A stretch of DNA of 64,000 nucleotides, taken from an uncultured Bacteroidales bacterium (GTDB lineage: Bacteria; Bacteroidota; Bacteroidia; Bacteroidales; Bacteroidaceae). Of this stretch, positions 6,300 through 24,864 are shown in pieces. Position 1 is the stretch's first letter. The number at the start of each line of letters is the position of its first letter. The stretch spans positions 9,444-73,443 of the forward strand of contig CADAGO010000018.1 of the NCBI GenBank assembly GCA_902787555.1, given 5' to 3'. The notes under the pieces are model-generated. The model had not been told where the DNA came from and made no database searches. It saw only the letters and a list, made by a program, of their open reading frames with translations. The translations under genes were made by a program, and so were the position numbers.

Positions 6300-8540
6300 T
6301 TATTTCACGTTGACCGTGATGCTTTTCAGATCGGCTGGATTTGCCGAAGGACCGACCATAACGGTATATTTCCCTGGTATGACTCGCATGGTGTTGGTCG
6401 CTGCATCCCACCACTCAAACGCGGTGCGGGGTAGGGTGATGGCGGCTTTGACGCTCTTGCCTGCCGGGACGGCAACTCGCTTGTAGGCACGGAGTGTGCG
6501 TGAGGGACCCGACGGGTCGTTGTCTTTACGGATATATACCTGCACTGTTTCGTCGGTGGGGCGCTTGCCGTTGTTGGTGAGGCTGACGCTGATGGTGGAA
6601 TTGGTGTAAGTGGGGGTGCCGTAGGTGACGTTGGTGTAGCTGAGTCCATAACCGAAGTACCAAAGGGGTGCGGCGGTCATATAGCGATAGGTGCGGCCTT
6701 TCATCTCGTAACTCTCGTAGTCGGGCAGCTGGTCGGTGCTGCGGTAGAAAGTGATGGGGAGTCGGCCGATGGGGTTGAAGTCGCCATAGAGCACATCGGC
6801 TAGTGCCTCACCTCCTGCTTCTCCTCCATACCACGCCTGGACGATTGCATCGCATGTCTGGGTTTCGGGCACGAGTGCTACTGCGCTGCCTGAGCAGTTG
6901 ACGAAGATGATGCGCTTGCCTGCATCGTGGAGCATTTTCAGCATGTTGCGCTGGATGTCGGGCAGTTCGATACTGGTGCGGTCGCCTCCACGGAAGCCTG
7001 GAAGGGTGATGCGCATCTCCTCTCCTTCGAGTCGGGGTGATATACCGCCTACGAAGATGACGACATCAGCATCGCGTACGCAATCCATGACTTCGCTGTT
7101 TGAGGTATTGGTGGCATCATCGGTACGGATGCGCAGGGCTTCATCGTGTCCGTAATCGACTTCGGGCTGTCCGTTGTTGCCATGCAGTGTGCGTGACGAG
7201 TTCTGTACGAGCTCGCAGGCTTTCATGTGCCCAACGACACGTCCCTTTGCCTGGATGCCCTCGAGGATGGTGACGGTGTGGCGTGGGAATCCGTTGTAGT
7301 TGCCCCACATCATCACGGAATCGTTGGCGTTAGGACCGATCACGGCTACCTTTGTGTCGCGCTTGAGGGGCAGGATGTTGTTCTTGTTCTGCAGTAGGAC
7401 GATGCTCTCGCGTGCGGCACGGAGGGCTATCTGATGGTGAGCTGCGTTGGCAATCACCTCGGGACCGATCTTCTTCCAGGGAACGAGTTCCTCGCTGTCG
7501 AAGTCACCCAGCTCGAAGCGTGCTTTGAGCAGTCGTAGCAGGCTCTGGTTGATTTTTTCCTCGGTTATCTTACCTTGTGCTACGGCCTCGGGTAGGTTGC
7601 GGAAGATGCCTCCGCACTCTACGTCGGTACCTGCTATGACAGCTGTGGCTACAGCACTCTCTTTTGAGTCGGATGTGCCGTGATTGGCTGGTTTCCAGAA
7701 ATCATCGACTGCCCAGCAATCGCTGGTCACGAGTCCCTTGAAGCCCCATTGCTTGCGCAGGATGTCGGTCAGCAGTCGTGAGTTGCCGCAGCAGGGTTCG
7801 CCATCGAAGCGGTGGTAGGCACACATCACTTCTTGTACGTCGCCTTCCTGTACAAGTGCTTTGAAGGCGGGGAGGTAGGTCTCCCACAGGTCGCGCTCGG
7901 GCAGCAGTTCGAGGTTGAACGAGTGGCGGTTCCACTCGGGTCCGCTATGTACGGCAAAGTGCTTGGCACATGCGAGCAACTTGCGGTACTTTCCATTGCG
8001 TCCGTAGTCGATGTTCTCGTTGCCTTGTGCTCCCTGCAGACCGCGAACGACGGCAAGTCCCATCATTGTGGTGAGGTAGGGGTCCTCGCCGTAGGTCTCC
8101 TGTCCGCGTCCCCAGCGTGGGTCACGGAAGATGTTGATGTTGGGTGTCCAGAACGACAGACACTGATATTGGCGTATGCGTCCTGACTGACGTGCTATGT
8201 TGTTCTTGGCACGTGCCTCGTCGCTTGCTGCCGTGAAGGCTTCCTGTACGAGTCCGTCGTTCCATGTGGCTGCCAGACCCATTGTGATGGGCAGGACGGT
8301 AGCTGTACCGTTACGCCCAATGCCGTGGAGGGCTTCGTTCCACCAGTTGAAGGCGGGAATGTCAAGACGTGCGATAGCGGGTGAGGTATGTTCCATGAGT
8401 CGTGCTTTCTCTTCGAGGGTGAGACGACTCAGCAAATCCTTTGCCCTCTCTTCTGCGGAGAGGGTAGGGTCCTTGTAGGGTTGAGCTGTAATGTATATTG
8501 TGCTAAGGGCAATGCATCCAAGAATAAGTGTACGTTTCAT
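6300..8540 (-). CDS. bglX: Glycoside hydrolase family 3 (beta-glucosidase/beta-xylosidase type)
   Basis: 746-aa ORF with a signal peptide. GH3 hallmarks are present: NWWNEALHG, RDPRWGRGQETYGEDP, KHFAVHSGPE and VTSDCWAV. The symbol is generic for the family. Confidence 0.85.
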   Translation of the reverse strand: MKRTLILGCIALSTIYITAQPYKDPTLSAEERAKDLLSRLTLEEKARLMEHTSPAIARLDIPAFNWWNEALHGIGRNGTATVLPITMGLAATWNDGLVQEAFTAASDEARAKNNIARQSGRIRQYQCLSFWTPNINIFRDPRWGRGQETYGEDPYLTTMMGLAVVRGLQGAQGNENIDYGRNGKYRKLLACAKHFAVHSGPEWNRHSFNLELLPERDLWETYLPAFKALVQEGDVQEVMCAYHRFDGEPCCGNSRLLTDILRKQWGFKGLVTSDCWAVDDFWKPANHGTSDSKESAVATAVIAGTDVECGGIFRNLPEAVAQGKITEEKINQSLLRLLKARFELGDFDSEELVPWKKIGPEVIANAAHHQIALRAARESIVLLQNKNNILPLKRDTKVAVIGPNANDSVMMWGNYNGFPRHTVTILEGIQAKGRVVGHMKACELVQNSSRTLHGNNGQPEVDYGHDEALRIRTDDATNTSNSEVMDCVRDADVVIFVGGISPRLEGEEMRITLPGFRGGDRTSIELPDIQRNMLKMLHDAGKRIIFVNCSGSAVALVPETQTCDAIVQAWYGGEAGGEALADVLYGDFNPIGRLPITFYRSTDQLPDYESYEMKGRTYRYMTAAPLWYFGYGLSYTNVTYGTPTYTNSTISVSLTNNGKRPTDETVQVYIRKDNDPSGPSRTLRAYKRVAVPAGKSVKAAITLPRTAFEWWDAATNTMRVIPGKYTVMVGPSANPADLKSITVNVK

Positions 8541-12557: not shown

Positions 12558-13022
12558 ATGAGAAAAATACTATTACTCCTAACGGTGCTTTTTGTTGCAA
12601 TTATGGCAAAAGCTGACGACAAGGTACTACAGATTTTGTTGTCTGATGGTCAGGTGGTCTCCATCAACCTCAGTGAAGAACCACGCACAACTTATCAAGA
12701 TGGTAATCTAGTGATTACAACAACAAAGAATACCATTACTTATCCATTGGAACAAGTCAAGACATTCACTTATTCCTCAGTTGCAACAGGCATTGATAAA
12801 CCCGAGAAGATGGGTGTTGCTTTCTCGAAAGATGGTGAGGTGTTAACCCTTACAGGCTTGAAGCCTCACACCAAAGTCACTCTGTATAACGTATCAGGTC
12901 AGTTGCTCAAGACAATTGACAACAAAGACGACAAGAAGGTTGTTGTCTCCGCTTCTCAGTTCCCATTCGGAATCTATGTGGTTAAAGTAAATGGTGAAAC
13001 CTATAAAATCATGAAGCGATGA
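12558..13022 (+). CDS. Small secreted protein with T9SS C-terminal sorting domain
   Basis: 154-aa ORF with signal peptide MRKILLLLTVLFVAIMAKA. The C-terminal tail VTLYNVSGQLLKTIDN...FGIYVVKVNGETYKIMKR is typical of T9SS CTDs. An ATGA overlap links it to the next gene. Confidence 0.7.
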   Translation: MRKILLLLTVLFVAIMAKADDKVLQILLSDGQVVSINLSEEPRTTYQDGNLVITTTKNTITYPLEQVKTFTYSSVATGIDKPEKMGVAFSKDGEVLTLTGLKPHTKVTLYNVSGQLLKTIDNKDDKKVVVSASQFPFGIYVVKVNGETYKIMKR

Positions 13023-15226
13023 AAACAAGACTCATAAAAAGCGTATTAGCCCTTTTGCTAACATTCTTGGCCCTTCCGATGATGGGACAAGACTTCATGA
13101 ATGTATATTTTAAGAATGGTGATTACCACAAGTTCTATATGAAGAACATATTAGAAATAACTACCTCTAAGTATGATGCAGAGGGAATTCCGCATAGTGA
13201 CTATGACTTCCAGCATGTGACTACTCTACATAATAAATACGTTTATGCTTTGAGCGACGTTGATTGCATTACGTTTACTAAGTGTGATGAGGAGCAAGTT
13301 AAAGCAAATATAAATGCCGCTATGCCTAAAATATATTCATTACTATCAGGATGCTCAAGTATCATTGATGTAGAAAAGAGTATTAGTAGTTTCAAGGAAA
13401 TAGAAGAATTAGAAGACGCTTGGTGTGATGGTCATGAATTATATGTGTCGATTCCCGGCTTAGGACCTATGTCGTTCTTTTTCCCTCATGAAATTGAAGA
13501 GAAGGTGGTTGAAACTACTCCAAAGCGTATTGGTAAAATAAAAGAACAACTTGTTGAGCGGACTAAAACTTTTGAAACTGAAGAACGGAAAATCAAGGCT
13601 GTTATTGCAAATCAAAATGCTAGTATTCTTGACAACGTGCGTACAGATTTTGATGGTTTGGAAGATGATTTTAAGTTTTGTCATGTTGATGTGGATTACG
13701 ACAAGAAGGAACCACTACTGAGTTTCTTTTTGACAGACATTTACAATTATGATCTTGTTTTTCTTAAGACACATGGAGCATTCGATGGTACACAGCATTG
13801 GTTATTGACATCATCTGTATTAGGTAAAAGCTTCATAAATCCAGAAGGAAACGACAAAAAGTGGGCAAAGTATTATGAGAATCTGCTGGACACAATTAAT
13901 AGTGACAAATATAAAGATAAGGAATTAGTATACGGAAAACACGTTGGTATTAGTTGGGCCGCCACGGAGATTGGTTATTATCATCCGTGTATTAAAGTCT
14001 CTGAAAGCTGCCTTAAGGACAAGTCAGAAGGTCAATTCCCTACAAAAAACTCAATTCTATTCAATGGAGCTTGTGAATCATTAATGGGTAGTGAGTCATT
14101 AGCCGCCTTATATTTGGACTATAGAAACCTGGGAATATATTTTGGATATGACAGAAGCAATAGTGGCGGACCTGTTGCTGGGTGTGACTTTTTTAGATCA
14201 TTACTTAAAGGAAAGTCTGTGACAAAAGCATATAATGACATACCTTATGAATATAGGGATGAAAGTGAATTATGGTATGCATTTTTTGGAGCACAATTAC
14301 ATCCAGTCACTCGAATGTCTGGTAAAGAATGTAACAACCTATATCTATTCCCTGTTTATACAGATAGATTATATGATAATATAGTCAATGACCAATACCA
14401 ACAAGTACATTATGTTGAACTAAATGGTGAGACAAAAACACTTGATGCCGACGCTATTGAATATGGCTTTTTCTATGGCATAGACGGAAATCTTGACAAA
14501 CAGATTTCTGACGTACAACTTTCATATTACGGAAAGACAGATAATATACTTTTTCAAGGAAAGTTGATAGATATTGAATTTGACAAAAAATACAGTTATC
14601 AAGCTTATACCTACGATGGCCAAAACTATAATTTGGGTGAAGTTCGTACCTTCACTATTCATAAACCAACCGACATTCCAGCCGAAGCAATTGATCTTGG
14701 CTTGCCAAGTGGTACACTTTGGGCCAGCTATAATATAGGCGCTACCAAACCTGAGGAATATGGGGATTATTTCTCATGGGGAGAGACAGAAGTGAGAGAT
14801 AAGTATTATTTTACCACTTATAGCCTATGTGATGGTACAGTCACTTCATGCCACGACATCGGAGAAAACATCAGCGGAACTAAGTATGACGTAGCTCACG
14901 TGAAGTGGGGTAATGGATGGTGTATGCCAACTAAAGACGACTTCAGAGAACTTGTATACAATTGTGATTATAAAGAAACGACCTTGAATGGTGTGAAAGG
15001 ATTCCAATTTACAGGATCCAATGGCAAGTATATTTTCCTGCCCTATACAGGGTATTGCTGGGATACAGAGAACAGCAAAGCAGGGACTGAAGGTAGTTAT
15101 TGGTCTGCCACACAAACGACTAGCGTCAACAAGGCTCATGAAATGAGCTTCAGGAACGACCGAATGCTTTGGGATTGTTATATTAACCGCTTTGCAGGAT
15201 TAACTGTGCGTCCAGTCAAGCGTTGA
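13019..15226 (+). CDS. Secreted 735-aa protein: possible clan-CD (legumain-like) His/Cys module plus C-terminal FISUMP/DUF1566-like domain
   Basis: The signal peptide ends ...LALPMMGQ. LVFLKTHGAFDG and ILFNGACESLMG resemble the His-Gly and Ala-Cys-Glu-Ser catalytic blocks of legumain-type peptidases. The C-terminus (LPSGTLWASYNIGA..YGDYFSWGETE..WGNGWCMPTKDDFRELV..GSYWSAT..AGLTVRPVK) resembles the Fibrobacter-paralogous/DUF1566-like domain common in Bacteroidales. The functional call is tentative. Confidence 0.55.
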   Translation: MKTRLIKSVLALLLTFLALPMMGQDFMNVYFKNGDYHKFYMKNILEITTSKYDAEGIPHSDYDFQHVTTLHNKYVYALSDVDCITFTKCDEEQVKANINAAMPKIYSLLSGCSSIIDVEKSISSFKEIEELEDAWCDGHELYVSIPGLGPMSFFFPHEIEEKVVETTPKRIGKIKEQLVERTKTFETEERKIKAVIANQNASILDNVRTDFDGLEDDFKFCHVDVDYDKKEPLLSFFLTDIYNYDLVFLKTHGAFDGTQHWLLTSSVLGKSFINPEGNDKKWAKYYENLLDTINSDKYKDKELVYGKHVGISWAATEIGYYHPCIKVSESCLKDKSEGQFPTKNSILFNGACESLMGSESLAALYLDYRNLGIYFGYDRSNSGGPVAGCDFFRSLLKGKSVTKAYNDIPYEYRDESELWYAFFGAQLHPVTRMSGKECNNLYLFPVYTDRLYDNIVNDQYQQVHYVELNGETKTLDADAIEYGFFYGIDGNLDKQISDVQLSYYGKTDNILFQGKLIDIEFDKKYSYQAYTYDGQNYNLGEVRTFTIHKPTDIPAEAIDLGLPSGTLWASYNIGATKPEEYGDYFSWGETEVRDKYYFTTYSLCDGTVTSCHDIGENISGTKYDVAHVKWGNGWCMPTKDDFRELVYNCDYKETTLNGVKGFQFTGSNGKYIFLPYTGYCWDTENSKAGTEGSYWSATQTTSVNKAHEMSFRNDRMLWDCYINRFAGLTVRPVKR

Positions 15227-15255
15227 GGATTATAAGTTGTATACTTTAATTGTTG

Positions 15256-15288
15256 TCCAGCCGCTGTATTTCAAGTACAGCGGCTGGA
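15256..15288. terminator. Bidirectional rho-independent terminator
   Basis: Perfect 13-bp stem tccagccgctgta / tacagcggctgga with a 7-nt loop, followed by ttatttt. It lies between convergent genes ending at 15226 (+) and 15388 (-). Confidence 0.7.
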
Positions 15289-15387
15289 TTATTTTGATAA
15301 GGTGAACAGATTCTTGAAATCTTTGAATAGTCTAAAAGGGTGAAGATGATTTCACTAGTTGTTTTTCTTTTTTGTACCTAATCGAAG

Positions 15388-16254
15388 TTATTTCGCAAAC
15401 CCTTTAGCTTGGAGCCACAGTATCAGTTGCTGGCTCCATGCTTCAGTTGTGGTGTTGCCTGTTTCTGGCATGAGTGTATATGGTCCTCGTCCGTCACCAT
15501 ACACGTGTAGCTCTGCATTGGCTCCTGCTTTTTTCCATTCGAGGAATAGGGCTAACAGACCTGCTGCCACGTTGGGGTGTTCTGCCCGTGTCATGATCAG
15601 GAGAGGGGGAGCTTGCTGTGGAACGGTCACTTTCATCAGCGACGGACCGTAGCAGGAGCATAGGAAGTCGGGACGTTCCATCGGGTCGGTAGCCTGGATA
15701 GTCGCTCCTACTGCAACACCTCCGCCTGCAGAGAACCCTAAAAAGCCGATTTTGTGTTCGTCGATATTCCATTCCTTAGCATGCTGGCGTACGAACTTTA
15801 TGGCTGCCTTCCCATCGTTGGCTGCCAGTTGAATGATACTGTCGCCAGCAGGGTAGTGCATTGGGTTGGCATCAGCTTGTGGGAATTGTTCAAATTTGGT
15901 AACATCGACCATAGGTGCCATCTGCATACCTGCGCCTCCTCGTGGTGCTCCTGTAATTTGTGTATAAAGGTGGTATCGCAGTCCGATAGCAGCGATACCT
16001 CGCTCGTTGAGGAATGTTGCCATTTGTTTCACATCGCTGTCCCATGCAAGTGCACGCATTCCTCCACCAGGACAAAGCACAACAGCACATCCGTTTGCTT
16101 TGTCGGTTTTTGGCAAATACACTTCAATCGTACCGGAACTGGTATTTGTTCCCTGCTCGTATGTGGGCAGGTTGTAAGTCTGTTGTGCAAAGATGTCAAT
16201 GCTGCTAATGATGAGCAGGGCAGACAATGTTGCTGTAAGTAATTGTCGTTTCAT
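15388..16254 (-). CDS. Secreted alpha/beta hydrolase (esterase/lipase, Abhydrolase_3-like)
   Basis: 288-aa ORF with a signal peptide. It has the oxyanion-type CPGGGM block and the nucleophile elbow GFSAGGG. Confidence 0.75.
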   Translation of the reverse strand: MKRQLLTATLSALLIISSIDIFAQQTYNLPTYEQGTNTSSGTIEVYLPKTDKANGCAVVLCPGGGMRALAWDSDVKQMATFLNERGIAAIGLRYHLYTQITGAPRGGAGMQMAPMVDVTKFEQFPQADANPMHYPAGDSIIQLAANDGKAAIKFVRQHAKEWNIDEHKIGFLGFSAGGGVAVGATIQATDPMERPDFLCSCYGPSLMKVTVPQQAPPLLIMTRAEHPNVAAGLLALFLEWKKAGANAELHVYGDGRGPYTLMPETGNTTTEAWSQQLILWLQAKGFAK

Positions 16255-16286
16255 GCGTTGTCGTAGTGTTGATAGTTTTTACGCTG

Positions 16287-16294
16287 CAAATTTA
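16287..16294 (-). promoter_or_regulatory. -7 promoter box TAAATTTG for the alpha/beta hydrolase gene
   Basis: Plus-strand caaattta is TAAATTTG on the minus strand, 33 nt upstream of the ATG at 16254. Confidence 0.45.
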
Positions 16295-16547
16295 TATAAA
16301 AAATTTGAGACTCAAAGTCAGTCTGAATAAAAAGTATCATAAATAGAGTTGAAAATAACCAAAGTGATGAAAAACACCTTTATAATTATATAATTGAGGT
16401 GTGAAAGAGTAAAAAATATAAGAAATAGGAGTTTTTTTGCAATTTTGTTTGGTCGTTCACAAAATTATTCCCAAATTTGCACGACATAGCGTGATAAAAG
16501 TTTATAGTAAGCAAACAAAAACTAAGTAAAATATTAACAACAAAATT

Positions 16548-17189
16548 ATGAAGGTAATGAAAACAAAGTTTTTTTATTTAGTAGCGATCATGGTAGGCAT
16601 GATGTATAGCACAGCCGTTAATGCACAGGAAGATGCTCAGACCGTTAAGGAGCAGAAAGCCATCATGAAACAAGCAACCAAGGATGCCAAGAAGCAAGCA
16701 AAGGCATTAAAGAAAGAGGGTTGGAAAGTAGCTGCTGGTAGCGCTCCAATGGAGACCCAGTTGGCAGAACTCTTAGTAAAGGAACGTGGAGGTCAGTCGG
16801 GTCTGCCTCAGTATATCATTGGCAGACAAGAAGCGCTCTCTGGCAGTCAAGGTGCAGCTCGTACGATTGCAATATCACGTGCTCGTAATGAAATTGCTGG
16901 CATCATCAATACGAAAGTTGCTGGCATCTTGGAAAGTACAATGGTTAATGTGCAGACTTCATCGGTTGATGTAGCTACCAATATGACTGATAAGAGTACC
17001 ACGAAACAGTTGATTGACCAATCGCTCGACAATACGAAGATCATACTTCAAATCTATCGTGAGGTGAACAACAACACACAGTACCAGATTGGTATGGCTT
17101 TCGAGGACTCTATGGCAAAAGAGATACTCAAGAAAGTGATGAGCGACGCAAGTGCTGAGCAGAAAGCAAAAGCAGAAGCTAAGTGGTAA
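16548..17189 (+). CDS. Secreted LPP20-like protein (operon gene 1)
   Basis: 213-aa ORF with a signal peptide ending ...TAVNAQ, K-rich helical termini and a core GAARTIAISRARNEIAGIINTKVAGILES that resembles the LPP20 lipoprotein family (by eye). Confidence 0.55.
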   Translation: MKVMKTKFFYLVAIMVGMMYSTAVNAQEDAQTVKEQKAIMKQATKDAKKQAKALKKEGWKVAAGSAPMETQLAELLVKERGGQSGLPQYIIGRQEALSGSQGAARTIAISRARNEIAGIINTKVAGILESTMVNVQTSSVDVATNMTDKSTTKQLIDQSLDNTKIILQIYREVNNNTQYQIGMAFEDSMAKEILKKVMSDASAEQKAKAEAKW

Positions 17190-17224
17190 GTAAAGTTTAT
17201 AGTTTATAGTTTAAAGATAGAATT

Positions 17225-19156
17225 ATGCATTATAAATTATGCATTAAGTCATTTGTTATTACCATCATCTGTTGTTTGATGCCATTATCGGCCTTCGCAC
17301 AGGACATGTTGGTGTACTATGTGGTAGGTAATGTGACCTACACATCGAATGGTACTTCAACTCCCTTGACGATGAACACCCGTATCGCACCGACAACAGT
17401 GATTAACGTACCAGCTGATAGTAGGGTAGAGTTGATTGACGTGAAGAACGCCAAGCGTATCATTCTGCTCGCATCAGGAAAGGGTGCAGTCAGCACGTTG
17501 TCGAAAAACAAAGGTAATACTGTCACAAGTGTTTCGCAGCAGTATGTGCAGTATGTGCTGCAACAGATGGACAATGACCAATTGACAGCATTGAAGCAGC
17601 ATAGTCGCGACAGCGAGCAGATGGCCAATCTGCTAAAGTCTATCGAGGATAGTGAGTCGGATGACAATGGGTTTGCTGATATGTTCAATGAATTCCGGGA
17701 AGATATCCATAAGGAGTTTGAGGAATTCCGCAGGAAGAACAACGAGGAGTATGCCGAGTTTGTGCGCCAGATATGGAAGCAGTTTAAGGCGGCTCCAGTT
17801 ATGCCTAAACCTCAGGATGACTTCATCAAACCTGTTGTGTATGAAGGTCCTGAAGGGGAACCACAGCAAACAGATATGTGGAGATTCCTTGCAAAGATAG
17901 AACGTGTTGCCAAGAAAATCTTCAAGCCTAACAAGGATGAAGTAGAGAAAATGCAGGGCAAAAAACGTCCGAAGCCTGCTACGCCTAAGAAGGTTGAGGA
18001 AACGAAAGAGCAACCGATTCAAGAAGTGAAGATTCCAAAGTCGCAGACCCAGTTTGCTTCGATGCCTTTTACCTTCTTTGGTACCGAGATGTCGGTCCGT
18101 ATTGATGAGAGTCGTCGCTTGTATCTTGGTAAGGTGACCCCCGACAATGTGGCTGACCTCATTCTCAATCAGTTGTCAACGAAGTATTACGACAATACAA
18201 TTGTCGACTGTCTGGCCTTGCGCGAGAAATATAACCTCTGTGACTGGGCATACTTGCTGATGCTGCAGACAATCAGCGACACATTCTGTGGAAAGGATAC
18301 AAAAGAGTCTGCCCTGTTAACAGGCTATATCTATTGTCAGTCGGGGTATAAAATCCGTTTCGCTACTGATGCTACACGAGATAATCTATATCTGTTAGTA
18401 GGAAGCCGCCATTTCATCTATGGAAAGTCACCTTGGATGCTGGATGGAGACTTCTACTATCCTGTTCTTGAAACCACTCCGACAAGTCTGCTTATTTGCG
18501 AAGCAGCCTATCCGCAGGAACAGAAATTGTCGCTATTTATTCCTACAACACCTCATTTTACAGAAGAATGGAACGAAGAGCGCGAAGTAGCATCACAGCG
18601 TTATCCAGAGGTAAAGATTCATGTGAAGGTGAACCAGAACCTCATGAATTTCTACGAGACCTATCCATCCTCACGTATCGGTGATGATTTCACCACTCGT
18701 TGGGTGATGTATGCCAATACTCCGATGCAGGAAGATATTAAGAACCAAATTTATCCTGAACTCAGTAAGGTGCTTCAAGGAAAGAGTCCCGTGGAGAAGG
18801 TAGAGCGTATTCTAAACCTTATCCAGACCGGACTTGAATATGGCTATGATGACGTGGTGTGGGGAGGCGATCGTGCTTTCTTCTCAGAAGAGACACTTAA
18901 CTATCCGTTGTGTGACTGTGAAGACCGCTCGATACTCTTTACCCGTCTTGTCCGCGATTTGGTAGGACTGAAGTGTGCATTGATATACTATCCCGGACAC
19001 TTGGCAGCAGCGGTTCATTTTGACGAAGAAGTGGGTGGTGTTCGCTATATGCTTGATAACGTACCTTACGTTGTTTGCGATGCTACCTATATTGGAGCTT
19101 CGGTAGGTATGCAGATGCCTGACTGCGATGATGCAACCCTGATAGCGATTGAGTAA
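17225..19156 (+). CDS. Secreted protein: FecR-like N-terminal module, charged linker, C-terminal transglutaminase-like (papain-fold) domain (operon gene 2)
   Basis: 643-aa ORF with a signal peptide ending ...LSAFAQ. The N-terminal beta-rich segment is VVGNVTYTSNGTSTPLTMNTRIAPTTVINVPADSRVELID. It is followed by a K/E/P-rich linker. The C-terminal Cys-His-Asp pattern is PLCDCEDRSILFTRLVRDLVGL...YYPGHLAAAVHF...VVCDATY. Confidence 0.6.
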   Translation: MHYKLCIKSFVITIICCLMPLSAFAQDMLVYYVVGNVTYTSNGTSTPLTMNTRIAPTTVINVPADSRVELIDVKNAKRIILLASGKGAVSTLSKNKGNTVTSVSQQYVQYVLQQMDNDQLTALKQHSRDSEQMANLLKSIEDSESDDNGFADMFNEFREDIHKEFEEFRRKNNEEYAEFVRQIWKQFKAAPVMPKPQDDFIKPVVYEGPEGEPQQTDMWRFLAKIERVAKKIFKPNKDEVEKMQGKKRPKPATPKKVEETKEQPIQEVKIPKSQTQFASMPFTFFGTEMSVRIDESRRLYLGKVTPDNVADLILNQLSTKYYDNTIVDCLALREKYNLCDWAYLLMLQTISDTFCGKDTKESALLTGYIYCQSGYKIRFATDATRDNLYLLVGSRHFIYGKSPWMLDGDFYYPVLETTPTSLLICEAAYPQEQKLSLFIPTTPHFTEEWNEEREVASQRYPEVKIHVKVNQNLMNFYETYPSSRIGDDFTTRWVMYANTPMQEDIKNQIYPELSKVLQGKSPVEKVERILNLIQTGLEYGYDDVVWGGDRAFFSEETLNYPLCDCEDRSILFTRLVRDLVGLKCALIYYPGHLAAAVHFDEEVGGVRYMLDNVPYVVCDATYIGASVGMQMPDCDDATLIAIE

Positions 19157-19181
19157 AAACATAACAGTAAAAGTTGAAATT

Positions 19182-19880
19182 GTGAGAATAAAGATTTTTG
19201 TTATATTGCTTTTTGCGACACTGACTTCTGTACAAGCACAGAAGGGTGCCGGGAATGGTGATGTGCGTACCATCAAGGCAGATGTGATGCCTACGCAGGC
19301 AACCGTTACTTTTAATTCCCAACGTATCAATACATTGGCTAACTCACCTGCTGCATCCAAGCAGGGAAAACCACAGTGGGATGTGTATGCCAACACTCCT
19401 ATCAGTGATGAGGTCAAGGCGCAACTTTATCCACAGCTGCGCAAGTATGTTCAGAACTACGGACAGCAGGCAGCAGTGAACGTGCTACTCGACTGGGTGC
19501 AGACCTCTTTCAAGTATACACCTCGTGCGAAGCGTCAGACATCTGGTACAAAAAAGATGGATCGTCCCTTCTATCCAGAGGAGATGCTCTATTATCTGAA
19601 TGGTGATTCAGAGGACTTTGCCATCCTCTTCTCACGTGTCATTCGTGATTTGATGGAGCTCGATGTCGTTTTGGTCAGTTATACTGCGCAAGTGGATGGT
19701 AAGGCATTCAATCACATGGCAACAGCGATTCTCTTCACTGATGACGTGCCAGGCGATGCTATAACCATCGACGAACAGCGCTATGTGATAGCCGATCCTA
19801 CTTATCAGGGAGCACCAGTGGGACATACCCATCCGCATTGTGATAATTCAACTGCTACCATCATACGCCTGAAACGATGA
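19182..19880 (+). CDS. Secreted paralog of the transglutaminase-like domain with Ser in place of the catalytic Cys (operon gene 3)
   Basis: The ORF track starts at a TTG at 19149. An in-frame GTG at 19182 gives a clean signal peptide, (M)RIKIFVILLFATLTSVQAQ, so the start is uncertain. It aligns with the C-terminus of the previous protein: YANTP..QLYP, DRPFYPEE, GDSEDFAILFSRVIRDL, NHMATAILF and IADPTYQGAPVG. Confidence 0.6.
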   Translation: MRIKIFVILLFATLTSVQAQKGAGNGDVRTIKADVMPTQATVTFNSQRINTLANSPAASKQGKPQWDVYANTPISDEVKAQLYPQLRKYVQNYGQQAAVNVLLDWVQTSFKYTPRAKRQTSGTKKMDRPFYPEEMLYYLNGDSEDFAILFSRVIRDLMELDVVLVSYTAQVDGKAFNHMATAILFTDDVPGDAITIDEQRYVIADPTYQGAPVGHTHPHCDNSTATIIRLKR

Positions 19881-21076
19881 CGAAGCTTTCTTTCCTTCTC
19901 AGCCTGCGACGCCACTATAAAATCAAGCTCGTTGGTGCGTTGTTGCTCAGTATCGGCATCATCGCTGCCAGTTATTTCATTGGCAATAGCGATATACCGA
20001 TGCCTGATGAGATGAAAGTGTTGCGAACGTTCGATCGTTTCATGAAGTTCAGTGGTCAGTATGAAGATAATCTGCCTGACAGCATTTTGTTGGTAAACGT
20101 ATGCTACGACAAGCAGTTGGTTGACTATGCTATCCATGATATCCCAGTAGGACAGTTTGTAATTACTGACCGTGAGAAACTCTTACGGTTTCTTACAGCT
20201 GCATGCGAGGCCGACAACTATCGCTACATCATGATGGATGTGTTCTTTGAACATAACATAGAGAGTCCGCAAGACTCTGCTCTGTTTGCTACCATCAGAA
20301 AGATGAACCGCATTGTTGTTGCCAATCATGTCGACTCCCATCTTTCCGATACGCTGTTGAAGCAGAAATCGGCATACGCTGACTATACCGTGAGCTGGAA
20401 AGTTACCAAATTCGCACATTTCCAGTTCTTACGTGAGGGTAACGAACCTACGATGCCATTGCGAATGTTTGAGGACCTAGCAGGAAAGCCCATCAAGAAG
20501 TGGGGACCCTTCTATTTCTGCGATGGGCGTCTTTGCAAGAACGCCATCACGCTCAATCTGCCAATCCGTGTGGAAGATGACTACAACATAGAAACCCCTA
20601 ATATGCTGGAGAAACGGTATGAGTTTCTTGGAGCAGACATTTTAGCTCATGATAGTATTTATCCTATCTCCATGCAGTTGGAAGACAAGATTGTCGTTAT
20701 CGGAGACTTTACGACCGACGTCCACGATACTTATCTCGGTCCTCAGCCAGGTTCGCTGATTTGCATCAATGCCTATCATGCGCTGCAACAAGGCGACCAC
20801 TACTTCCATTGGGGGTGGGCATTCGTTCAGTTTATTATCTATTTCATCATCGGATATTTCTTGATGAGTCGCCTCACGTTTGCAAGAATGATGCCAAATA
20901 TTTTCCTCCGCATGCTGTTCTTCATTTTCAGTGTGCCTTCCATCCTGCTCGTTGTGGCCCTCATTGCCTATGTCACGACAGGTTATGTGTACAACATGTA
21001 CATTCCTACTTTCCTCTATTGGATTTATCAATTTATCTATAACACATATAGAAAAGCAAAAATGAGCCAAAAATGA
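19877..21076 (+). CDS. CHASE2-like membrane sensor protein without output domain (operon gene 4)
   Basis: 399-aa ORF with an N-terminal TM helix. CHASE2-like blocks are ITDREKLLRFL, YIMMDVFFE and DKIVVIGDFTTDVHDTYLGPQPGSLICINAYHALQ. Three C-terminal TM helices follow and the protein ends about 10 aa later. ATGA overlaps occur at both gene ends. Confidence 0.6.
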   Translation: MTKLSFLLSLRRHYKIKLVGALLLSIGIIAASYFIGNSDIPMPDEMKVLRTFDRFMKFSGQYEDNLPDSILLVNVCYDKQLVDYAIHDIPVGQFVITDREKLLRFLTAACEADNYRYIMMDVFFEHNIESPQDSALFATIRKMNRIVVANHVDSHLSDTLLKQKSAYADYTVSWKVTKFAHFQFLREGNEPTMPLRMFEDLAGKPIKKWGPFYFCDGRLCKNAITLNLPIRVEDDYNIETPNMLEKRYEFLGADILAHDSIYPISMQLEDKIVVIGDFTTDVHDTYLGPQPGSLICINAYHALQQGDHYFHWGWAFVQFIIYFIIGYFLMSRLTFARMMPNIFLRMLFFIFSVPSILLVVALIAYVTTGYVYNMYIPTFLYWIYQFIYNTYRKAKMSQK

Positions 21077-21726
21077 AAATGCATTGTTTTATTTTATTAA
21101 TTTTTACGTTTTTCAATTCTTCAATTCTTCGTGCCGACGATTACAAGATATTGTATACCAACAGCAAAGATGTCCTTGTAGATGGTAAGAAAGTGCAGGT
21201 GGGTGCTACTTTCAATGATAAGTCAGTCATCACTTGGGCTAAGGACGTAGAACGTCAAGCCATTAAGGCTGTGAACACCAAAACCAACAAGATGTGCTTG
21301 TTCGTGTCGCAGTCTCTGGAAAAGAATTCTCTCACTGCCCTCGAGATTCTCACCGCAAACAAACACCTGTCCACTCATGCCGCCTATCAGGAAGGTCAGG
21401 ACATCAGCATCCCAATCAAGTTGCGTAAGTCTTTCGAAGAGAATTACGAACTGCTTGATACGCTGGTAATCGATACCAATGTGAAACTCCCGCCATCGTT
21501 ATCCCTCATCGCTACCTATACGTATGGTGATGCACGCGTTTCGAAGACTCTTAAGACCGAAAACGGTCAAGTCATTATCGACCGAAAGTTGTTCAGCATC
21601 GATGGTAAGGCACTTCAGCCACGTGATGTTACCCTCAATCTTGACCTCTACAATAAAGATGATGGTATGTACACTTTCATCAAGGCAGATGTCCAACTTA
21701 TGGTCATCCCCGAAACAGCAAAGTAA
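21073..21726 (+). CDS. Small secreted protein of unknown function (operon gene 5)
   Basis: 217-aa ORF with signal peptide MKMHCFILLIFTFFNSSILRA. An ATGA overlap links it to the CHASE2-like gene. I recognise no family. Confidence 0.6.
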   Translation: MKMHCFILLIFTFFNSSILRADDYKILYTNSKDVLVDGKKVQVGATFNDKSVITWAKDVERQAIKAVNTKTNKMCLFVSQSLEKNSLTALEILTANKHLSTHAAYQEGQDISIPIKLRKSFEENYELLDTLVIDTNVKLPPSLSLIATYTYGDARVSKTLKTENGQVIIDRKLFSIDGKALQPRDVTLNLDLYNKDDGMYTFIKADVQLMVIPETAK

Positions 21727-21798
21727 GTTGCATCACTTTATTCGTTTTTTCTACACCTTGTCAACGATACAAATAGAGCATAAACTTGAACAATAGAT

Positions 21799-22890
21799 AT
21801 GAATAAATTATTAACAGCTATGTTGATGTGCAGTATGTTTGCTGCATGCACTAACTATGAACAAACTACAAACGACAATATGGAACAAACAGTGAACAAT
21901 CCCATCCCAGGTACAGATGGAAATAAGTATGTGCCTTATGAGCAACGTACAGGCAATGAGTCTGTGGTTTATTTTACCCGTAGTCTCTCAGCTGAAGGCC
22001 TTATCAAAGCCTATGAACAGGTATGTGAGAATATCTCTGGACGTGTGGGCGTAAAACTCCATACCGGAGAGCAGAATGGACCCAATATCATCCCGCGTGA
22101 ATGGGTAAAGGAACTGATGCAGAAAGATCTACCCGATGCTAACATCATCGAGACAAATACCTATTATGAGGGTGATCGCTATACGACCGAACAGCATCGT
22201 AAGACGTTGGAAGTGAATGGTTGGACGTTCTGTCCGGTTGACATTATGGACGAGCAAGACACAACAACAATTCCTGTTGTTGGCGGTAAGTGGTTTAAGA
22301 AGATGGCTGTCGGGTCACATCTTGTCAACTATGATGCAATGGTGGCACTTACTCATTTCAAAGGGCATACGATGGGTGGTTTCGGTGGTTCAAACAAGAA
22401 TATCGGTATCGGATGTGCCGATGGACGTATTGGAAAAGCTTGGATACATACCGTGAAGGGGTCGGACGATCAGTGGTCTATTGCCGAGGAAGAGTTTATG
22501 GAACGTATGACAGAATCCACAAAAGCCACAATCGATTTCTTTGGCAAGAAGGTAACTTATGTGAATGTGATGCGTAACATGTCTGTCTCTTGCGACTGCG
22601 AGGGTTTGGCTGCAGAGCCGGTTGTTACACCCGATGTCGGTATCCTCTCCTCAACAGATATTCTTGCTATTGATCAGGCTTGCGTTGATCTTATCTATGC
22701 GATGACTGCCGAGGAACACCACGATATGGTGGAGCGTATTGAGAGCCGACACGGTCTGCGCCAGCTGTCATATATGAAGGAGTTGGGCATGGGTAATAAC
22801 CGTTACATCCTCATCGATCTCGACAATGACGGAAAGAGAATTACTGCGGCAGAAGCAGTCAAAGGTCTCAAACCATTTGTCGCTAAATAA
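21799..22890 (+). CDS. DUF362-like lipoprotein
   Basis: 363-aa ORF with signal peptide plus lipobox (MFAAC). Blocks VKLHTGEQNG, LTHFKGHTMGGFGGSNKNIGIGCADGRIGKAWIH and SCDCEG...GILSSTDILAIDQACVDL resemble DUF362 (from memory). Confidence 0.55.
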   Translation: MNKLLTAMLMCSMFAACTNYEQTTNDNMEQTVNNPIPGTDGNKYVPYEQRTGNESVVYFTRSLSAEGLIKAYEQVCENISGRVGVKLHTGEQNGPNIIPREWVKELMQKDLPDANIIETNTYYEGDRYTTEQHRKTLEVNGWTFCPVDIMDEQDTTTIPVVGGKWFKKMAVGSHLVNYDAMVALTHFKGHTMGGFGGSNKNIGIGCADGRIGKAWIHTVKGSDDQWSIAEEEFMERMTESTKATIDFFGKKVTYVNVMRNMSVSCDCEGLAAEPVVTPDVGILSSTDILAIDQACVDLIYAMTAEEHHDMVERIESRHGLRQLSYMKELGMGNNRYILIDLDNDGKRITAAEAVKGLKPFVAK

Positions 22891-22892
22891 CA

Positions 22893-23483
22893 ATGACAAC
22901 ACGCGACGAATTAGCGCAAAACCCTGCTTTGCAGGACGAGTTGCGGCGCATGCAAAGGGGGGAACCGTATGATGCACATACCCCCGAGATGTATGCTTGG
23001 CGTGACGAGGTGAAAAAACTGCTTCGGCGACTCAATATCACAGAATACCATGAGCCTACGATGCGAGATATCATTCACGAACTGCTACCCAATGCAGCTC
23101 CCGATATTTATGTTGAACCACCTTTCCATTGTGATTACGGCAATCTGATTTTTGCAGGCGAAGGTGTCTTCATCAATTTTGGTTGCTGCATCCTTGATGG
23201 GGGAGGGGTCTATATCGGTCGCAAGACACTGATAGCTCCAGGGGTAAGTATCTTCACAGCAGAACATCCGTTAAATGCTGATGACCGTGATAAGTGGGAG
23301 ACATGTCGTCCTGTCCATATCGGAGAACGATGTTGGATAGGAGGTAATGTCACGATCTGTCCTGGTGTTACCATTGGCGACCGTACCGTTATTGGAGCGG
23401 GGGCGGTTGTAGTTAAAGATATACCAGCCGATTGCCTTGCAGTAGGTAACCCGGCTAAGGTTATCAGACGGTTAAATGTTTAG
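22893..23483 (+). CDS. maa: Sugar O-acetyltransferase (maltose/galactoside acetyltransferase family, left-handed beta-helix)
   Basis: 196-aa ORF. It has the N-terminal Mac-type segment (MQRGEPYDAHTPEM) and hexapeptide repeats (IGERCWIGGNVTICPGVTIGDRTVIGAGAVV). It starts 2 nt after the previous stop. Confidence 0.8.
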   Translation: MTTRDELAQNPALQDELRRMQRGEPYDAHTPEMYAWRDEVKKLLRRLNITEYHEPTMRDIIHELLPNAAPDIYVEPPFHCDYGNLIFAGEGVFINFGCCILDGGGVYIGRKTLIAPGVSIFTAEHPLNADDRDKWETCRPVHIGERCWIGGNVTICPGVTIGDRTVIGAGAVVVKDIPADCLAVGNPAKVIRRLNV

Positions 23484-23505
23484 AATAGGTAATTCAGAAA
23501 GTTTA

Positions 23506-24864
23506 ATGAAAAGATTACTTACCATACTCATTATTTTGCAAGGGTGGACTCAGCTATGGGCTGATGGCTATGACATAGAGTCAGCTACAGATGCAGTTAG
23601 AAACATGCGTCTGGGATGGAATTTGGGCAACACCCTCGATAGCAATTCGGGTGACGTAGATAATATGTGGATAGAACGTTGGACGAGTCGTACTCCAACC
23701 GACTACGAGAAGGCATGGGGACAAGTGCCTACCACACAGGAACTTGTCAACATGATGCGTGATGCTGGTATCAATGCCATCCGTGTGCCCGTGACTTGGT
23801 ATCCCCACATGGTGAAGACATGGGTAATGATTGACAACAGTACGACATGGAATCAAGAGAAGGCTCCCATAGTTCAGTATATGAATGCAGCGTGGATGCG
23901 TAGAGTGAAGCAGACGGTAGACTATATCATCAATGCTGGTATGTATTGTGTATTGAATGTCCATCACGACACAGGAGCAGCAAATACCGCGTGGATACGT
24001 GCCAGCATGGACAACTATAATCGTAATCGCGAACTGTACGAATGGCTGTGGACACGCATTGCTGAAGAATTCAAGGACTATGATGAGCATCTGATTTTCG
24101 AAGGATATAATGAAATGCTCGACGAGAAGGGTTCCTGGTGCTTTGCTACATTTAGCTACCCAGGGAACTATAATGCAGATGCTGCTAACGATGCGTATGA
24201 TGCCATCAACCATTATGCTCAGTCATTTGTCAGTGCAGTGAGAGCTACAGGTGGCAACAATGCAATGCGTAACCTCATGGTGAATACTTATGCTGCAAGT
24301 AATGGTGACGGTAATTGGAATACACACCTTAAAGATCCGCTCACCAAGATGAAGTTACCCGCCGATTCTGTCGAGGACCATCTTATGTTCCAAGTGCATT
24401 ATTATCCTAATTTTAAGACATTAGCTGAAGGGAAGAGTAGTGTCAACAGCCTCTGTAGTTTACTCAAGAGCAGATTGGTATCAAAGGGCGCACCGGTTGT
24501 CATTGGTGAATGGGGCGCAGCAGAGGATAGCCAAGTAGGATATGGCAAACAAAATGATATATTCCTTCAGTGGGCTAAGTATTTCGTGAGTCGTACTAAG
24601 GCCAACGATATAGGCACATTTCTGTGGATGGGACTTAGTGATGGCAATGCGCGTAGTGTGCCTGAGTTCAGTCAACCAGACCTGCTCGATGCTATTGTCA
24701 AGGGATTTTATGGCGATGAAGGATATATAAGTGCCATTGAAAAACCGGAATTAAACATTCCTGCCATTGAATCCGTTTACACGCTGAACGGCACGAGGAT
24801 TTACTCACATCCCCATCCGCATGGCATTTATATACAAGGAGGAAAAACAATTGTGATAAAGTGA
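23506..24864 (+). CDS. Glycoside hydrolase family 5 enzyme with T9SS C-terminal sorting domain
   Basis: The ORF track starts at 23476; I trimmed it to the ATG at 23506 (MKRLLTILIILQGW is a signal peptide). Motifs: GWNLGNTLD, FEGYNEMLD (acid/base Glu) and VIGEWGA (nucleophile Glu). The tail VYTLNGTRIYSHPHPHGIYIQGGKTIVIK is CTD-like. Confidence 0.8.
   Translation: MKRLLTILIILQGWTQLWADGYDIESATDAVRNMRLGWNLGNTLDSNSGDVDNMWIERWTSRTPTDYEKAWGQVPTTQELVNMMRDAGINAIRVPVTWYPHMVKTWVMIDNSTTWNQEKAPIVQYMNAAWMRRVKQTVDYIINAGMYCVLNVHHDTGAANTAWIRASMDNYNRNRELYEWLWTRIAEEFKDYDEHLIFEGYNEMLDEKGSWCFATFSYPGNYNADAANDAYDAINHYAQSFVSAVRATGGNNAMRNLMVNTYAASNGDGNWNTHLKDPLTKMKLPADSVEDHLMFQVHYYPNFKTLAEGKSSVNSLCSLLKSRLVSKGAPVVIGEWGAAEDSQVGYGKQNDIFLQWAKYFVSRTKANDIGTFLWMGLSDGNARSVPEFSQPDLLDAIVKGFYGDEGYISAIEKPELNIPAIESVYTLNGTRIYSHPHPHGIYIQGGKTIVIK

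Follow-up and report, generated by a model that had tools for sequence, protein, structure and literature searches.

What can five coupled genes do for a bacterium when every one of their products is an envelope protein? The question is raised by positions 16548-21726 of a 64-kb stretch of DNA (64,000 nt of contig CADAGO010000018.1, assembly GCA_902787555.1; referred to as the window), whose source was a rumen Bacteroidaceae lineage of metagenome-assembled genomes (MAGs). An original prediction, made from the letters alone, had described a translationally coupled, wholly extracytoplasmic unit of five co-oriented open reading frames (ORFs), and ORF calling confirmed all five in place (referred to as g1 to g5; sizes in amino acids (aa)):

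16548-17189 (+): g1, 213 aa, ORF call
17225-19156 (+): g2, 643 aa, ORF call
19182-19880 (+): g3, 232 aa from a GTG start; alternatively 19149-19880, 243 aa, from a TTG start at 19149
19877-21076 (+): g4, 399 aa, ORF call
21073-21726 (+): g5, 217 aa, ORF call

The five genes are one operon, all of whose products are envelope proteins, and their arrangement is clade-specific, being one form of a modular envelope system that occurs widely in Bacteroidales. These statements on composition and evolution are much more secure than those on mechanism given below. The junctions were as predicted: a 35-nt gap between g1 and g2, ATGA stop/start overlaps between g3 and g4 (19877-19880) and between g4 and g5 (21073-21076), and, between g2 and g3, either an 8-nt overlap (TTG start at 19149) or a gap (GTG start at 19182) of 25 nt rather than the 26 nt first given. 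On six public contigs from the same species, gene callers picked the GTG start (232 aa), which yields a canonical signal peptide, MRIKIFVILLFATLTSVQA/Q. Signal peptides with a positive N-terminus, a hydrophobic core, and an AxA-type cleavage site were recognized by eye on g1, g2, g3, and g5: VNA/Q, AFA/Q, VQA/Q, and LRA/D, respectively; no lipobox Cys was seen by eye in any of these four. Together with the transmembrane (TM) anchor of g4, a signal peptide or membrane anchor was thus confirmed on every product. The five-gene order recurred in six species-level lineages (L001-type and L012-L016; g2 identity of 75-100%), and the conservation of this order and of the 4-nt overlaps in all six supported the coupled, wholly extracytoplasmic unit.

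Pfam CHASE2 (PF05226) matched residues 49-324 of g4 at 35.0 bits (cut-off: 26.3 bits; E=1.5e-8), above threshold, as anticipated by its earlier description as CHASE2-like. The topology was also that of a CHASE2 protein (one N-terminal TM segment, an extracytoplasmic domain of ~250-300 aa, and three TM segments): TM1 at residues 18-36, a periplasmic domain, and C-terminal TM segments at 313-331 and 346-364 by hydropathy, with a third, aromatic-rich segment at ~370-392 by eye. Positive residues flanked both ends. As had been noticed, g4 ends right after its last TM helix: the tail is 7 residues long, the cytoplasmic portions total ~40 residues, and none of the output domains of CHASE2 sensors (kinases, cyclases, or GGDEF/EAL) is present. 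In short, g4 is a CHASE2 protein of the inner membrane that has next to nothing on the cytoplasmic side. It had 138 relatives, and since most of the 120 listed were ~380-440 aa long, there was no room for an output domain in them either. One relative (86% identity) is publicly annotated as 'CHASE2 domain-containing protein', and a commoner CHASE2-only subtype found beside g2 relatives (referred to as c2) was aligned to g4 by hhalign with a probability of 95.5%. CHASE2 is a widespread sensor domain for which no direct ligand is known and, to our knowledge, no structure has been solved.

The second gene, g2, encodes a secreted multidomain protein of 643 aa, for which no family in Pfam or NCBIfam reached threshold. 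Its family is large: 617 relatives in a protein database clustered at 90%, and, when one genome of each GTDB species was scanned, 436 stretches encoding relatives. From the AlphaFold2 (AF2) model (pLDDT of 83.7, pTM of 0.85), alignment, and Foldseek, the following parts were delimited:

17303..17608 (+): N-terminal β-sandwich domain of g2, residues 27-128, AF2 strands at 28-102; the 'CHASE2-associated' partner domain
17675..17788 (+): conserved helix of g2, residues 151-188, alignment and AF2; F168, R169, and W184 invariant
18059..19153 (+): α/β body (residues 279-499) and transglutaminase-fold catalytic core (residues 500-643) of g2, alignment and Foldseek

The transglutaminase/papain-like C-terminus with an intact Cys-His-Asp triad, proposed by eye, was supported by an invariant triad, the confidently modelled fold, and the structural matches. 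The catalytic codons are nt 18917-18919 (Cys565), 18998-19000 (His592), and 19079-19081 (Asp619); in an alignment of 28 homologues, D564-C565-E566-D567 and H592 were invariant and D619 near-invariant (>=90%), with the acidic D564, E566, and D567 flanking the catalytic Cys. Of 93 family members, 92 carried DCED and one carried DSED. Against the Protein Data Bank (PDB), the top Foldseek match was LapG (4u65_E; E=1.8e-3, probability of 1.0, target TM-score of 0.51), followed by 3isr, PNGase, Rad4/XPC, TG2, vasohibin, and menin. At the sequence level, on the other hand, Transglut_core (PF01841) scored 14.7 bits against a gathering score of 23 (E=0.037), gave matches at E<=0.01, also sub-threshold, in 8 of the 28 homologues (best: 2e-4), and no BTLCP/LapG model was present among the g2 Pfam matches at E<=1. 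A g2 profile search of PDB sequences returned only noise and did not retrieve LapG even at E<=10, and a sequence-level tie to LapG or to any solved structure was rejected. Because it rests on the triad and Foldseek while the hidden Markov models (HMMs) stay below threshold, the transglutaminase assignment holds for fold and catalytic residues, not for membership of a curated family.

Two other features ascribed to g2 were not borne out. Its N-terminus had been called FecR-like; however, FecR (PF04773) had no match in g2 (E<=1), in the 28 homologues, or in 10 N-domain representatives (both at E<=0.01), and the assignment was rejected at the sequence level. In the model the domain is a small β-sandwich, and no FecR structure was found among the 50 Foldseek matches listed. 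The sole solved small β-sandwich among those matches was 5ix9, a LapA/MpIBP-type retention module (probability of 1.0, target TM-score of 0.72). This match, for which query coordinates were not reported, most likely belongs to the N-domain; NCBIfam retention_LapA also matched residues 26-145 weakly (E=0.28). Likewise, the ~150-aa K/E/P-rich region is not a mere linker since it contains the conserved helix with invariant F168, R169, and W184; the Pro/Lys-rich, low-confidence linker covers residues ~189-270, after that helix. The N-terminal β-domain is missing from the short family members of ~490 aa. Tandem G2 paralogues were present in many genomes (L023, L037, L046, L048, and L089, all in the order short G2, CHASE2, long G2; also L031, L038, L066, L080, L086, and L090), and nearly all copies retained the catalytic Cys, unlike g3 of the window clade; one member of the G2 cluster had CDSED.

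Sequence comparison bore out g3 as a stand-alone, secreted paralogue of the g2 catalytic core, although not as the second of a pair of thiol peptidases. At the position of CDCED in g2, g3 has GDSED (nt 19602-19616), with Ser143 in the nucleophile position, and this Cys-to-Ser replacement was found in all 9 distinct sequences of the g3 family, with His and Asp retained (His178 and Asp205 in g3, with an 8-residue insertion before the His). Since Ser replaces the catalytic Cys in every family member, g3 is not a thiol enzyme, and is probably a pseudo-protease. Pfam matches were just or well below threshold: 20.1 bits (cut-off: 20.5) for DUF553, a transglutaminase-like family, and 14.3 bits for Transglut_core. 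g3 was found solely in the window clade (12 loci, six lineages).

The setting of the operon was analyzed in 90 loci, namely the best 79 of the 436 stretches and earlier loci, in which ORFs were called and clustered, and the representatives annotated with Pfam. All of the best 79 were from Bacteroidales (Bacteroides, Phocaeicola, Prevotella, Paraprevotella, Parabacteroides, and Muribaculaceae). The following families were found beside g2 relatives:

70/90 loci: g1 family
46/90 loci: c2, the commoner CHASE2-only subtype (Pfam, 54 bits)
42/90 loci: ~294-aa protein with a sub-threshold DUF4384 match
28/90 loci: protein with leucine-rich repeats (LRR) and Peptidase_C14
23/90 loci: ~315-aa protein without an assigned family
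20/90 loci: ~620-aa LPP20-domain protein (sub-threshold match)
13/90 loci: c7, some members being PEGA and outer-membrane protein (OMP)-barrel proteins

BACON, TPR-caspase, and plain caspase proteins occurred in 3-8 loci each. The commonest order was g1 - CHASE2 - G2 - DUF4384 - unknown - LRR-caspase, and relatives of the cluster usually had, in addition, a DUF4384 protein and secreted caspase-family proteases (Peptidase_C14 or CHAT), the latter with lectin-type modules or with LRR, TPR, WD40, or Sel1 repeats. No kinase, cyclase, GGDEF, sigma, or anti-sigma gene was conserved beside the cluster in the ~90 loci, and the 64-kb window contained no caspase, DUF4384, or large LPP20 homologue. The expectation that the five genes travel together therefore failed in its general form: only g1+g2 and g4+g5 are widespread, and g3, the g4 subtype, and g5 joined g1 and g2 in only 12 of the 90 loci (six lineages). 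The five genes are thus not universally linked; two widely travelling pairs, g1+g2 and g4+g5, make up the cluster together with a clade-specific paralogue (g3). In two of the lineages (L014 and L015), a 593-aa protein and a TPR-Peptidase_C14 protein are inserted between G2 and G3.

CHASE2 genes of this output-less kind were directly followed, typically with an ATGA overlap, by a gene for a secreted product headed by a β-sandwich: the g5 N-domain after the g4 type, and the g2 N-domain after the c2 type. For the latter, 43 adjacent pairs were found (median spacing of -4 nt), and the G2 N-domain and a CHASE2 gene were both present in 48 loci and both absent in 25, with only 9 discordant (48/6/3/25; Fisher p=2e-12, not corrected for phylogeny). 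Most gene-level discordances were traced to tandem G2 copies or an insertion, and the short G2 forms mostly had no CHASE2 neighbor. In the window clade, spacing was -4 nt in 6/6 lineages for both g3 to g4 and g4 to g5. A g4-type CHASE2 gene directly followed by a g5 N-domain gene was also found, with a 4-nt overlap except in L096, in four unrelated contexts:

L092: CHASE2, 120-aa g5 N-domain, then CHAT, Sel1, and CHAT
L094: WD40-caspase, Sel1, CHASE2, and g5
L097: caspase, intervening genes, TPR, CHASE2, and g5 N-domain fused to TPR/Sel1 repeats
L096: g1, short G2, CHASE2, and g5; a four-gene version without g3

When 1.84 billion representative proteins were searched with the g2 N-domain profile, 275 matches were obtained. 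The domain was placed at the N-terminus of G2, after CHASE2 in run-on ORFs, and at the N-terminus of a 1241-aa TPR-CHAT protein (P0313); because it also heads the latter, it appears to act as a portable module tying different proteases to the system. The run-on ORFs (P0065 and at least four more 50%-identity clusters: P0405, P0275, P0286, and P0294) were downgraded to weak evidence because the downstream start codon and signal peptide are kept at the junctions, and we do not use them as Rosetta-stone fusions of CHASE2 and G2. Stand-alone forms of the β-domain of ~150 aa are not claimed either: P0270 ends in the G2 helix motif, and is a probable contig-edge fragment. P0291 (322 aa), in which the β-domain precedes a partial EAL domain with no TM segment and an abrupt junction, is a probable assembly chimera; if real, it would tie the module to cyclic di-GMP (c-di-GMP).

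In the AF2 model of g5 (pLDDT of 78.5), two Ig-like β-sandwiches were seen:

21136-21372 (+): N-domain of g5, residues 22-100
21442-21705 (+): C-domain of g5, residues 124-211

As reported before, g5 has no recognized family: there was no Pfam or NCBIfam family, and 23 relatives were found. Foldseek returned generic Ig/FnIII matches only, and no function was taken from the fold. Kinship of g5 to the g2 N-domain or to the families c3, c5, x56, x27, x58, x65, and c6 was rejected (hhalign probabilities <=1.4%).

The remaining product, g1, is a secreted non-lipoprotein in which a K/E-rich helix precedes a core described from the start as LPP20-like. This part of the description was sustained for the family more than for the window protein, which had no match to Pfam LPP20 (PF02169) at E<=1. 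Among the 57 g1-family members, 4 matched Pfam LPP20 (E<=0.01); the family profile matched Helicobacter pylori LPP20 (5ok8) at E=0.032 and a Bacteroides finegoldii protein annotated by PGAP as 'LPP20 family lipoprotein', encoded two genes upstream of a G2 homologue, at 1.6e-18; and hhalign with the LPP20 region of the neighbor family c6 gave a probability of 47%. These family links are weak but convergent, and suggest, weakly, an LPP20-like core. What LPP20 itself does is poorly defined. The signal peptide of g1, MKVMKTKFFYLVAIMVGMMYSTAVNA/Q, has no Cys and thus no lipobox of the LPP20-lipoprotein kind. G58-W59 (nt 16719-16724) were the sole invariant residues in the alignment of 57 sequences. 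This pair sits in the motif KKEGWK, and resembles, perhaps by coincidence, a conserved LapD loop, GWxQ, through the Trp of which LapD contacts LapG (PMC4359373).

How might these parts work together? The best explanation, which we hold tentatively and at somewhat less than even confidence, is a periplasm-only proteolytic switch with a logic like that of LapD and LapG. The periplasmic CHASE2 domain of g4, anchored by four TM helices, would bind a β-sandwich adaptor (g5, and perhaps also the N-domain of g2), and this binding would hold, position, or gate the putative cysteine protease g2. On the sensing of a ligand or an envelope change by CHASE2 and/or the adaptor, g2 would be released or activated to cut proteins of the envelope or surface; obvious candidates for partners or substrates are g1 and other LPP20-like proteins, and g3 may be a catalytically dead decoy or regulator competing for a substrate or docking site. 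The output would be envelope proteolysis, not a cytoplasmic second messenger.

Several points weigh against this switch, which we infer from fold and gene context. Foldseek gave E-values that are only modest (best: 1.8e-3), every Pfam transglutaminase match is sub-gathering, and BTLCP is missing from the g2 matches at E<=1; the fold could equally cross-link or deamidate instead of cleaving, and the substrates of g2 are candidates only. The g2 N-domain in the window is not beside its usual c2-type CHASE2, the only CHASE2 there being of the g4 type, whose usual partner is g5, and the N-domains of g5 and g2 have no detectable sequence kinship (hhalign probability of 0.2%). The run-on ORFs of CHASE2 and the β-domain may be read-throughs rather than functional fusions, and the statistics of G2 N-domain/CHASE2 co-occurrence ignore phylogenetic non-independence. 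Nor does a CHASE2 protein without a cytoplasmic domain have an obvious route by which to receive or relay a signal.

A broader form of the switch is possible, but we consider it doubtful: output-less CHASE2 would be the hub of extracytoplasmic proteolytic signalling or surveillance, on which the portable β-adaptor (on g5, on the g2 N-terminus, or on a TPR-CHAT protein) would dock secreted proteases of two unrelated folds, transglutaminase-like and caspase/CHAT. If so, the output of the sensor would be regulated envelope or surface proteolysis, in some genomes with retroelement-diversified ligand recognition, and this would be a new mode of action for CHASE2 and a new envelope system in Bacteroidales, a dominant gut and rumen order.

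On another reading, the cluster is a module for conflict, defence, or programmed death outside the cytoplasm, centered on caspase-type proteases, in which CHASE2 and the β-adaptors would detect invaders or damage to the envelope, with the caspase/CHAT proteins and g2 as effectors; the window cluster would then be a caspase-less derivative, possibly in decay. We regard this as unlikely. In its favor, many loci combine G2 and CHASE2 with Peptidase_C14/CHAT proteins that carry LRR, TPR, WD40, or Sel1 repeats, and caspase-CHASE2 fusions are treated in the conflict-system literature (PMC8195603). The C-terminal FGE-sulfatase domain of one caspase is the target of a canonical diversity-generating retroelement (DGR): within the extended cluster of L007 (Prevotella sp. 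GCA_017428995), the variable repeat (VR; 4680-4810) is the 3' end of a secreted Peptidase_C14 and FGE-sulfatase gene, the template repeat (TR; 6373-6503) falls within that of the RVT_1 reverse-transcriptase gene, 19/19 mismatches fall at template adenines, and the CHASE2 gene and a g2 homologue come directly downstream. The g4-g5/caspase module of L094 (9000-15209: WD40-caspase, Sel1, g4-type CHASE2, and g5) also adjoins transposase fragments and DnaB/AAA_25, DUF932, and PLD-nuclease genes, a setting that suggests that some versions of the module ride integrative mobile elements. However, none of the five window proteins had a significant PADLOC match (best: g1, E=0.032), and their membership of a defence system was rejected; although the window has no caspase homologue, the five genes are intact and kept in six lineages with an invariant g2 triad; all components are secreted or periplasmic, whereas known caspase-based abortive-infection systems are cytoplasmic; and in the window species the cluster is flanked by a stable set of genes for housekeeping and glycan degradation. 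A phage or plasmid origin was likewise rejected, with a single weak match in each collection.

The proteolytic switch has also to be weighed against an envelope or surface-layer assembly system, to which we give little credence: g2 would cross-link or mature LPP20-like, DUF4384, and PEGA/OMP-barrel proteins, with CHASE2 as an anchor or scaffold only and no signalling. The transglutaminase superfamily fold supports both cross-linking and hydrolysis, CHASE2 has no output domain here, g1 is the most faithful partner of g2 (70/90 loci), and the recurrent neighbors (LPP20-domain, DUF4384, PEGA plus OMP β-barrel, BACON, DUF6175, and LpoB-like proteins) would suit such a role. On the other hand, the closest solved structures are the protease LapG and then mostly non-cross-linking members of the fold, the coupled pairing of CHASE2 with β-adaptors and the reuse of the adaptor on a CHAT protease look regulatory, and CHASE2 is otherwise known solely as a sensor module (PMC5192318, PMC13001267).

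Conventional transmembrane signalling, in which g4 would relay to an unlinked kinase, cyclase, or anti-sigma factor and g2 and g5 would be FecR-like ligand presenters, comes near to the FecR/CHASE2 view of the original prediction, but appears improbable. CHASE2 is normally an input domain, operons of a FecR-domain protein and a CHASE2 histidine kinase occur in Burkholderia and Pseudomonas (PMC5192318), and one neighbor, in L085, has weak similarity to sigma-70 region 4; however, FecR had no HMM match in g2, its homologues, or the N-domain representatives, no kinase, cyclase, GGDEF, sigma, or anti-sigma gene was conserved beside the cluster in ~90 loci, the cytoplasmic portions of g4 amount to ~40 residues, and most of its 120 listed relatives are too short for an output domain. 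A chance juxtaposition of unrelated secreted-protein genes, or separate transcription units, is scarcely credible in spite of the restriction of g3, the g4-type CHASE2, and g5 together to one small clade, the possibility of internal starts in the 35-nt and possible 25-nt gaps, and promoter-like sites inside the cluster in a scan with a sigma-70 consensus not valid for Bacteroidetes, since order and 4-nt overlaps are kept in six lineages, g1+g2 and g4+g5 recur independently in many genomes with all four together in L096, and g3 is a paralogue of g2.

That sigma-70 promoter/terminator scan was set aside as uninformative for Bacteroidetes. The region 5' of g1 is a divergent, AT-rich intergenic region of 293 nt, in which a pattern search gave one candidate:

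16448..16479 (+): putative Bacteroidetes-type promoter TTTG-N20-CAAATTTG, 69 nt 5' of the g1 ATG, proposed from the pattern only

It resembles the Bacteroides promoter consensus. The strict TAnnTTTG pattern had no match within 16548-21726, and Rfam had none in 15000-22500 (operon and upstream region).

Downstream, 72 nt after g5 and with no predicted terminator between, lie genes for DUF362, a hexapeptide acetyltransferase, and a glycoside hydrolase family 5 (GH5) cellulase (21799-24864, +). Read-through transcription from g5 into them is possible; they were left out of the unit because they are neighbors only on contigs of the window species and, in part, in L012. Upstream, two co-oriented genes with a 4-nt overlap (12558-15226, +) are considered a strain-specific insertion beside the operon's upstream neighbor because they are absent from the same-species contigs L001-L006. 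One encodes a 154-aa protein with a near-threshold type IX secretion system (T9SS) C-terminal sorting domain (Por_Secre_tail; 25.9 vs 27 bits), and the other (13019-15226) a secreted protein of 735 aa, whose sole family match was a weak one to FISUMP (Fib_succ_major) at the C-terminus and the C-terminus of which shares 29% identity over 184 aa with that of the Sel1 protein in the CHASE2-g5N-CHAT cluster of L092. An H...C motif was seen by eye in the 735-aa protein (HGAFDG...GACES), but there was no caspase match, and the gene was rejected as a hidden caspase of the system: no PDB or caspase-profile match was obtained, and it is absent from same-species contigs.

Two other carriers of g2 relatives are recorded here. 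A cultured human-gut strain of B. finegoldii (L098; NZ_OY725910.1, 90697-101164, a 101-kb 'plasmid 8' record typed as non-mobilizable) has the order LpoB-like, DUF6175, LPP20 lipoprotein of 625 aa, LPP20 lipoprotein of 193 aa (a g1/x27 relative), 335-aa unknown, and G2 of 506 aa (SDCED), a series without CHASE2; DUF6175 is also found near the g5 homologue of L091. MT839828.1, a 4-kb 'Bacteriophage sp.' record from human feces, carries a gene for a homologue of g2 (30% identity, with 71% of the query covered); as the record is short and unannotated, it is likely a bacterial fragment rather than a case of phage carriage.

What the locus offers is a CHASE2 protein with no output, translationally coupled to secreted adaptors and set amid secreted proteases, which is a testable alternative to the role of CHASE2 as a kinase or cyclase input. 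Neither Pfam nor NCBIfam covers the large g2 family, which has an intact triad and was found in 436 species-level Bacteroidales genomes, among them cultured Bacteroides, Parabacteroides, Paraprevotella, and Prevotella. If the Bacteroidales of gut and rumen do regulate envelope proteolysis in this way, it would matter for surface remodelling, for colonisation, and for how they interact with phages or hosts; if g2 were a routine envelope hydrolase, the finding would reduce to the annotation of several new families.

With regard to known systems, the earlier statement that none combines such modules was not sustained. FecR-CHASE2 operons and caspase-CHASE2 fusions have been published (PMC5192318, PMC3501461, PMC8195603), whereas full-text literature searches, whose coverage was incomplete, found no account of the cluster or of any pairing of CHASE2 and a transglutaminase-like protease. 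With H. pylori LPP20 (HP1456; 5ok8) and LPP20-family lipoproteins the g1 family shares the core to which its profile aligns, but the window g1 differs from these in having neither a lipobox nor a Pfam LPP20 match. Two structural-genomics 'putative cysteine proteases' of the same phylum, 3isr from Cytophaga hutchinsonii and 3kd4 (BDI_1141) from Parabacteroides distasonis, share with g2 a transglutaminase-like fold and an N-terminal extension (Foldseek ranks 5 and 11); however, they align poorly to it (root-mean-square deviation of 16-18 Å, probability of 0.15-0.57), and have no reported CHASE2 context and no known function.

As in other prokaryotic caspase homologues (orthocaspases/metacaspases and CHAT), the extended family described here includes Peptidase_C14/CHAT proteins, and these share with them accessory modules such as CHASE2, FGE-sulfatase, WD40, TPR, or DUF4384; catalogued caspase-CHASE2 and caspase-FGE-sulfatase architectures (PMC3501461, PMC8195603) are a further parallel. 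The window cluster itself has no caspase, the catalogued caspases are cytoplasmic (PMC3501461) whereas the proteases here all have signal peptides, and those descriptions do not include the G2, G1, and G5 families. Since caspases of bacteria are for the most part treated as effectors of death or defence in the cytoplasm, a link to secreted ones, of which one is diversified by a retroelement, is unusual.

CHASE2 kinases are paired with secreted FecR-domain proteins in the Burkholderia 'BiofilmReg' operon and its P. aeruginosa homologue (PMC5192318), and the NsrA-dependent CHASE2 adenylate cyclases of Sinorhizobium answer a protein signal relayed via an outer-membrane protein (PMC13001267). The likeness lies, for the former, in the gene for a secreted β-rich protein beside the CHASE2 gene and, for the latter, in signalling via protein partners, not a known small ligand. 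They carry a kinase or cyclase output, and g4 has none; moreover, the FecR partner is a Pfam FecR protein encoded upstream, whereas the partner domains here have no FecR match and are encoded downstream.

The closest parallel in logic is the Lap system (Pseudomonas, Legionella, and Vibrio), in which LapD recruits LapG, a Ca-dependent periplasmic protease of the transglutaminase fold (PMC4359373, PMC3032545). LapG, a Cys-His-Asp protease, is the top Foldseek match of g2; the periplasmic domain of an inner-membrane protein controls the protease in Lap by binding it, as is proposed here (PMC4359373, PMC3032545); and the g2 model has a small β-sandwich like the LapA-type retention module (5ix9). 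The differences are also clear. The membrane protein here is a CHASE2 protein without a cytoplasmic domain, not a HAMP-GGDEF-EAL LapD; sequence similarity of g2 to LapG is undetectable; the retention-like β-domain is on the protease itself, but on the substrate in Lap; g2 is three times the size of LapG, with an extra conserved body, and the host phylum is Bacteroidota. Neither a LapD-type c-di-GMP receptor nor a LapA-type or giant RTX adhesin was seen among the conserved neighbors (~90 loci), in which a type I secretion system (T1SS) was not specifically searched for. Taken together, these comparisons point to a membrane-receptor-associated periplasmic protease module that is built from known folds and is apparently undescribed.

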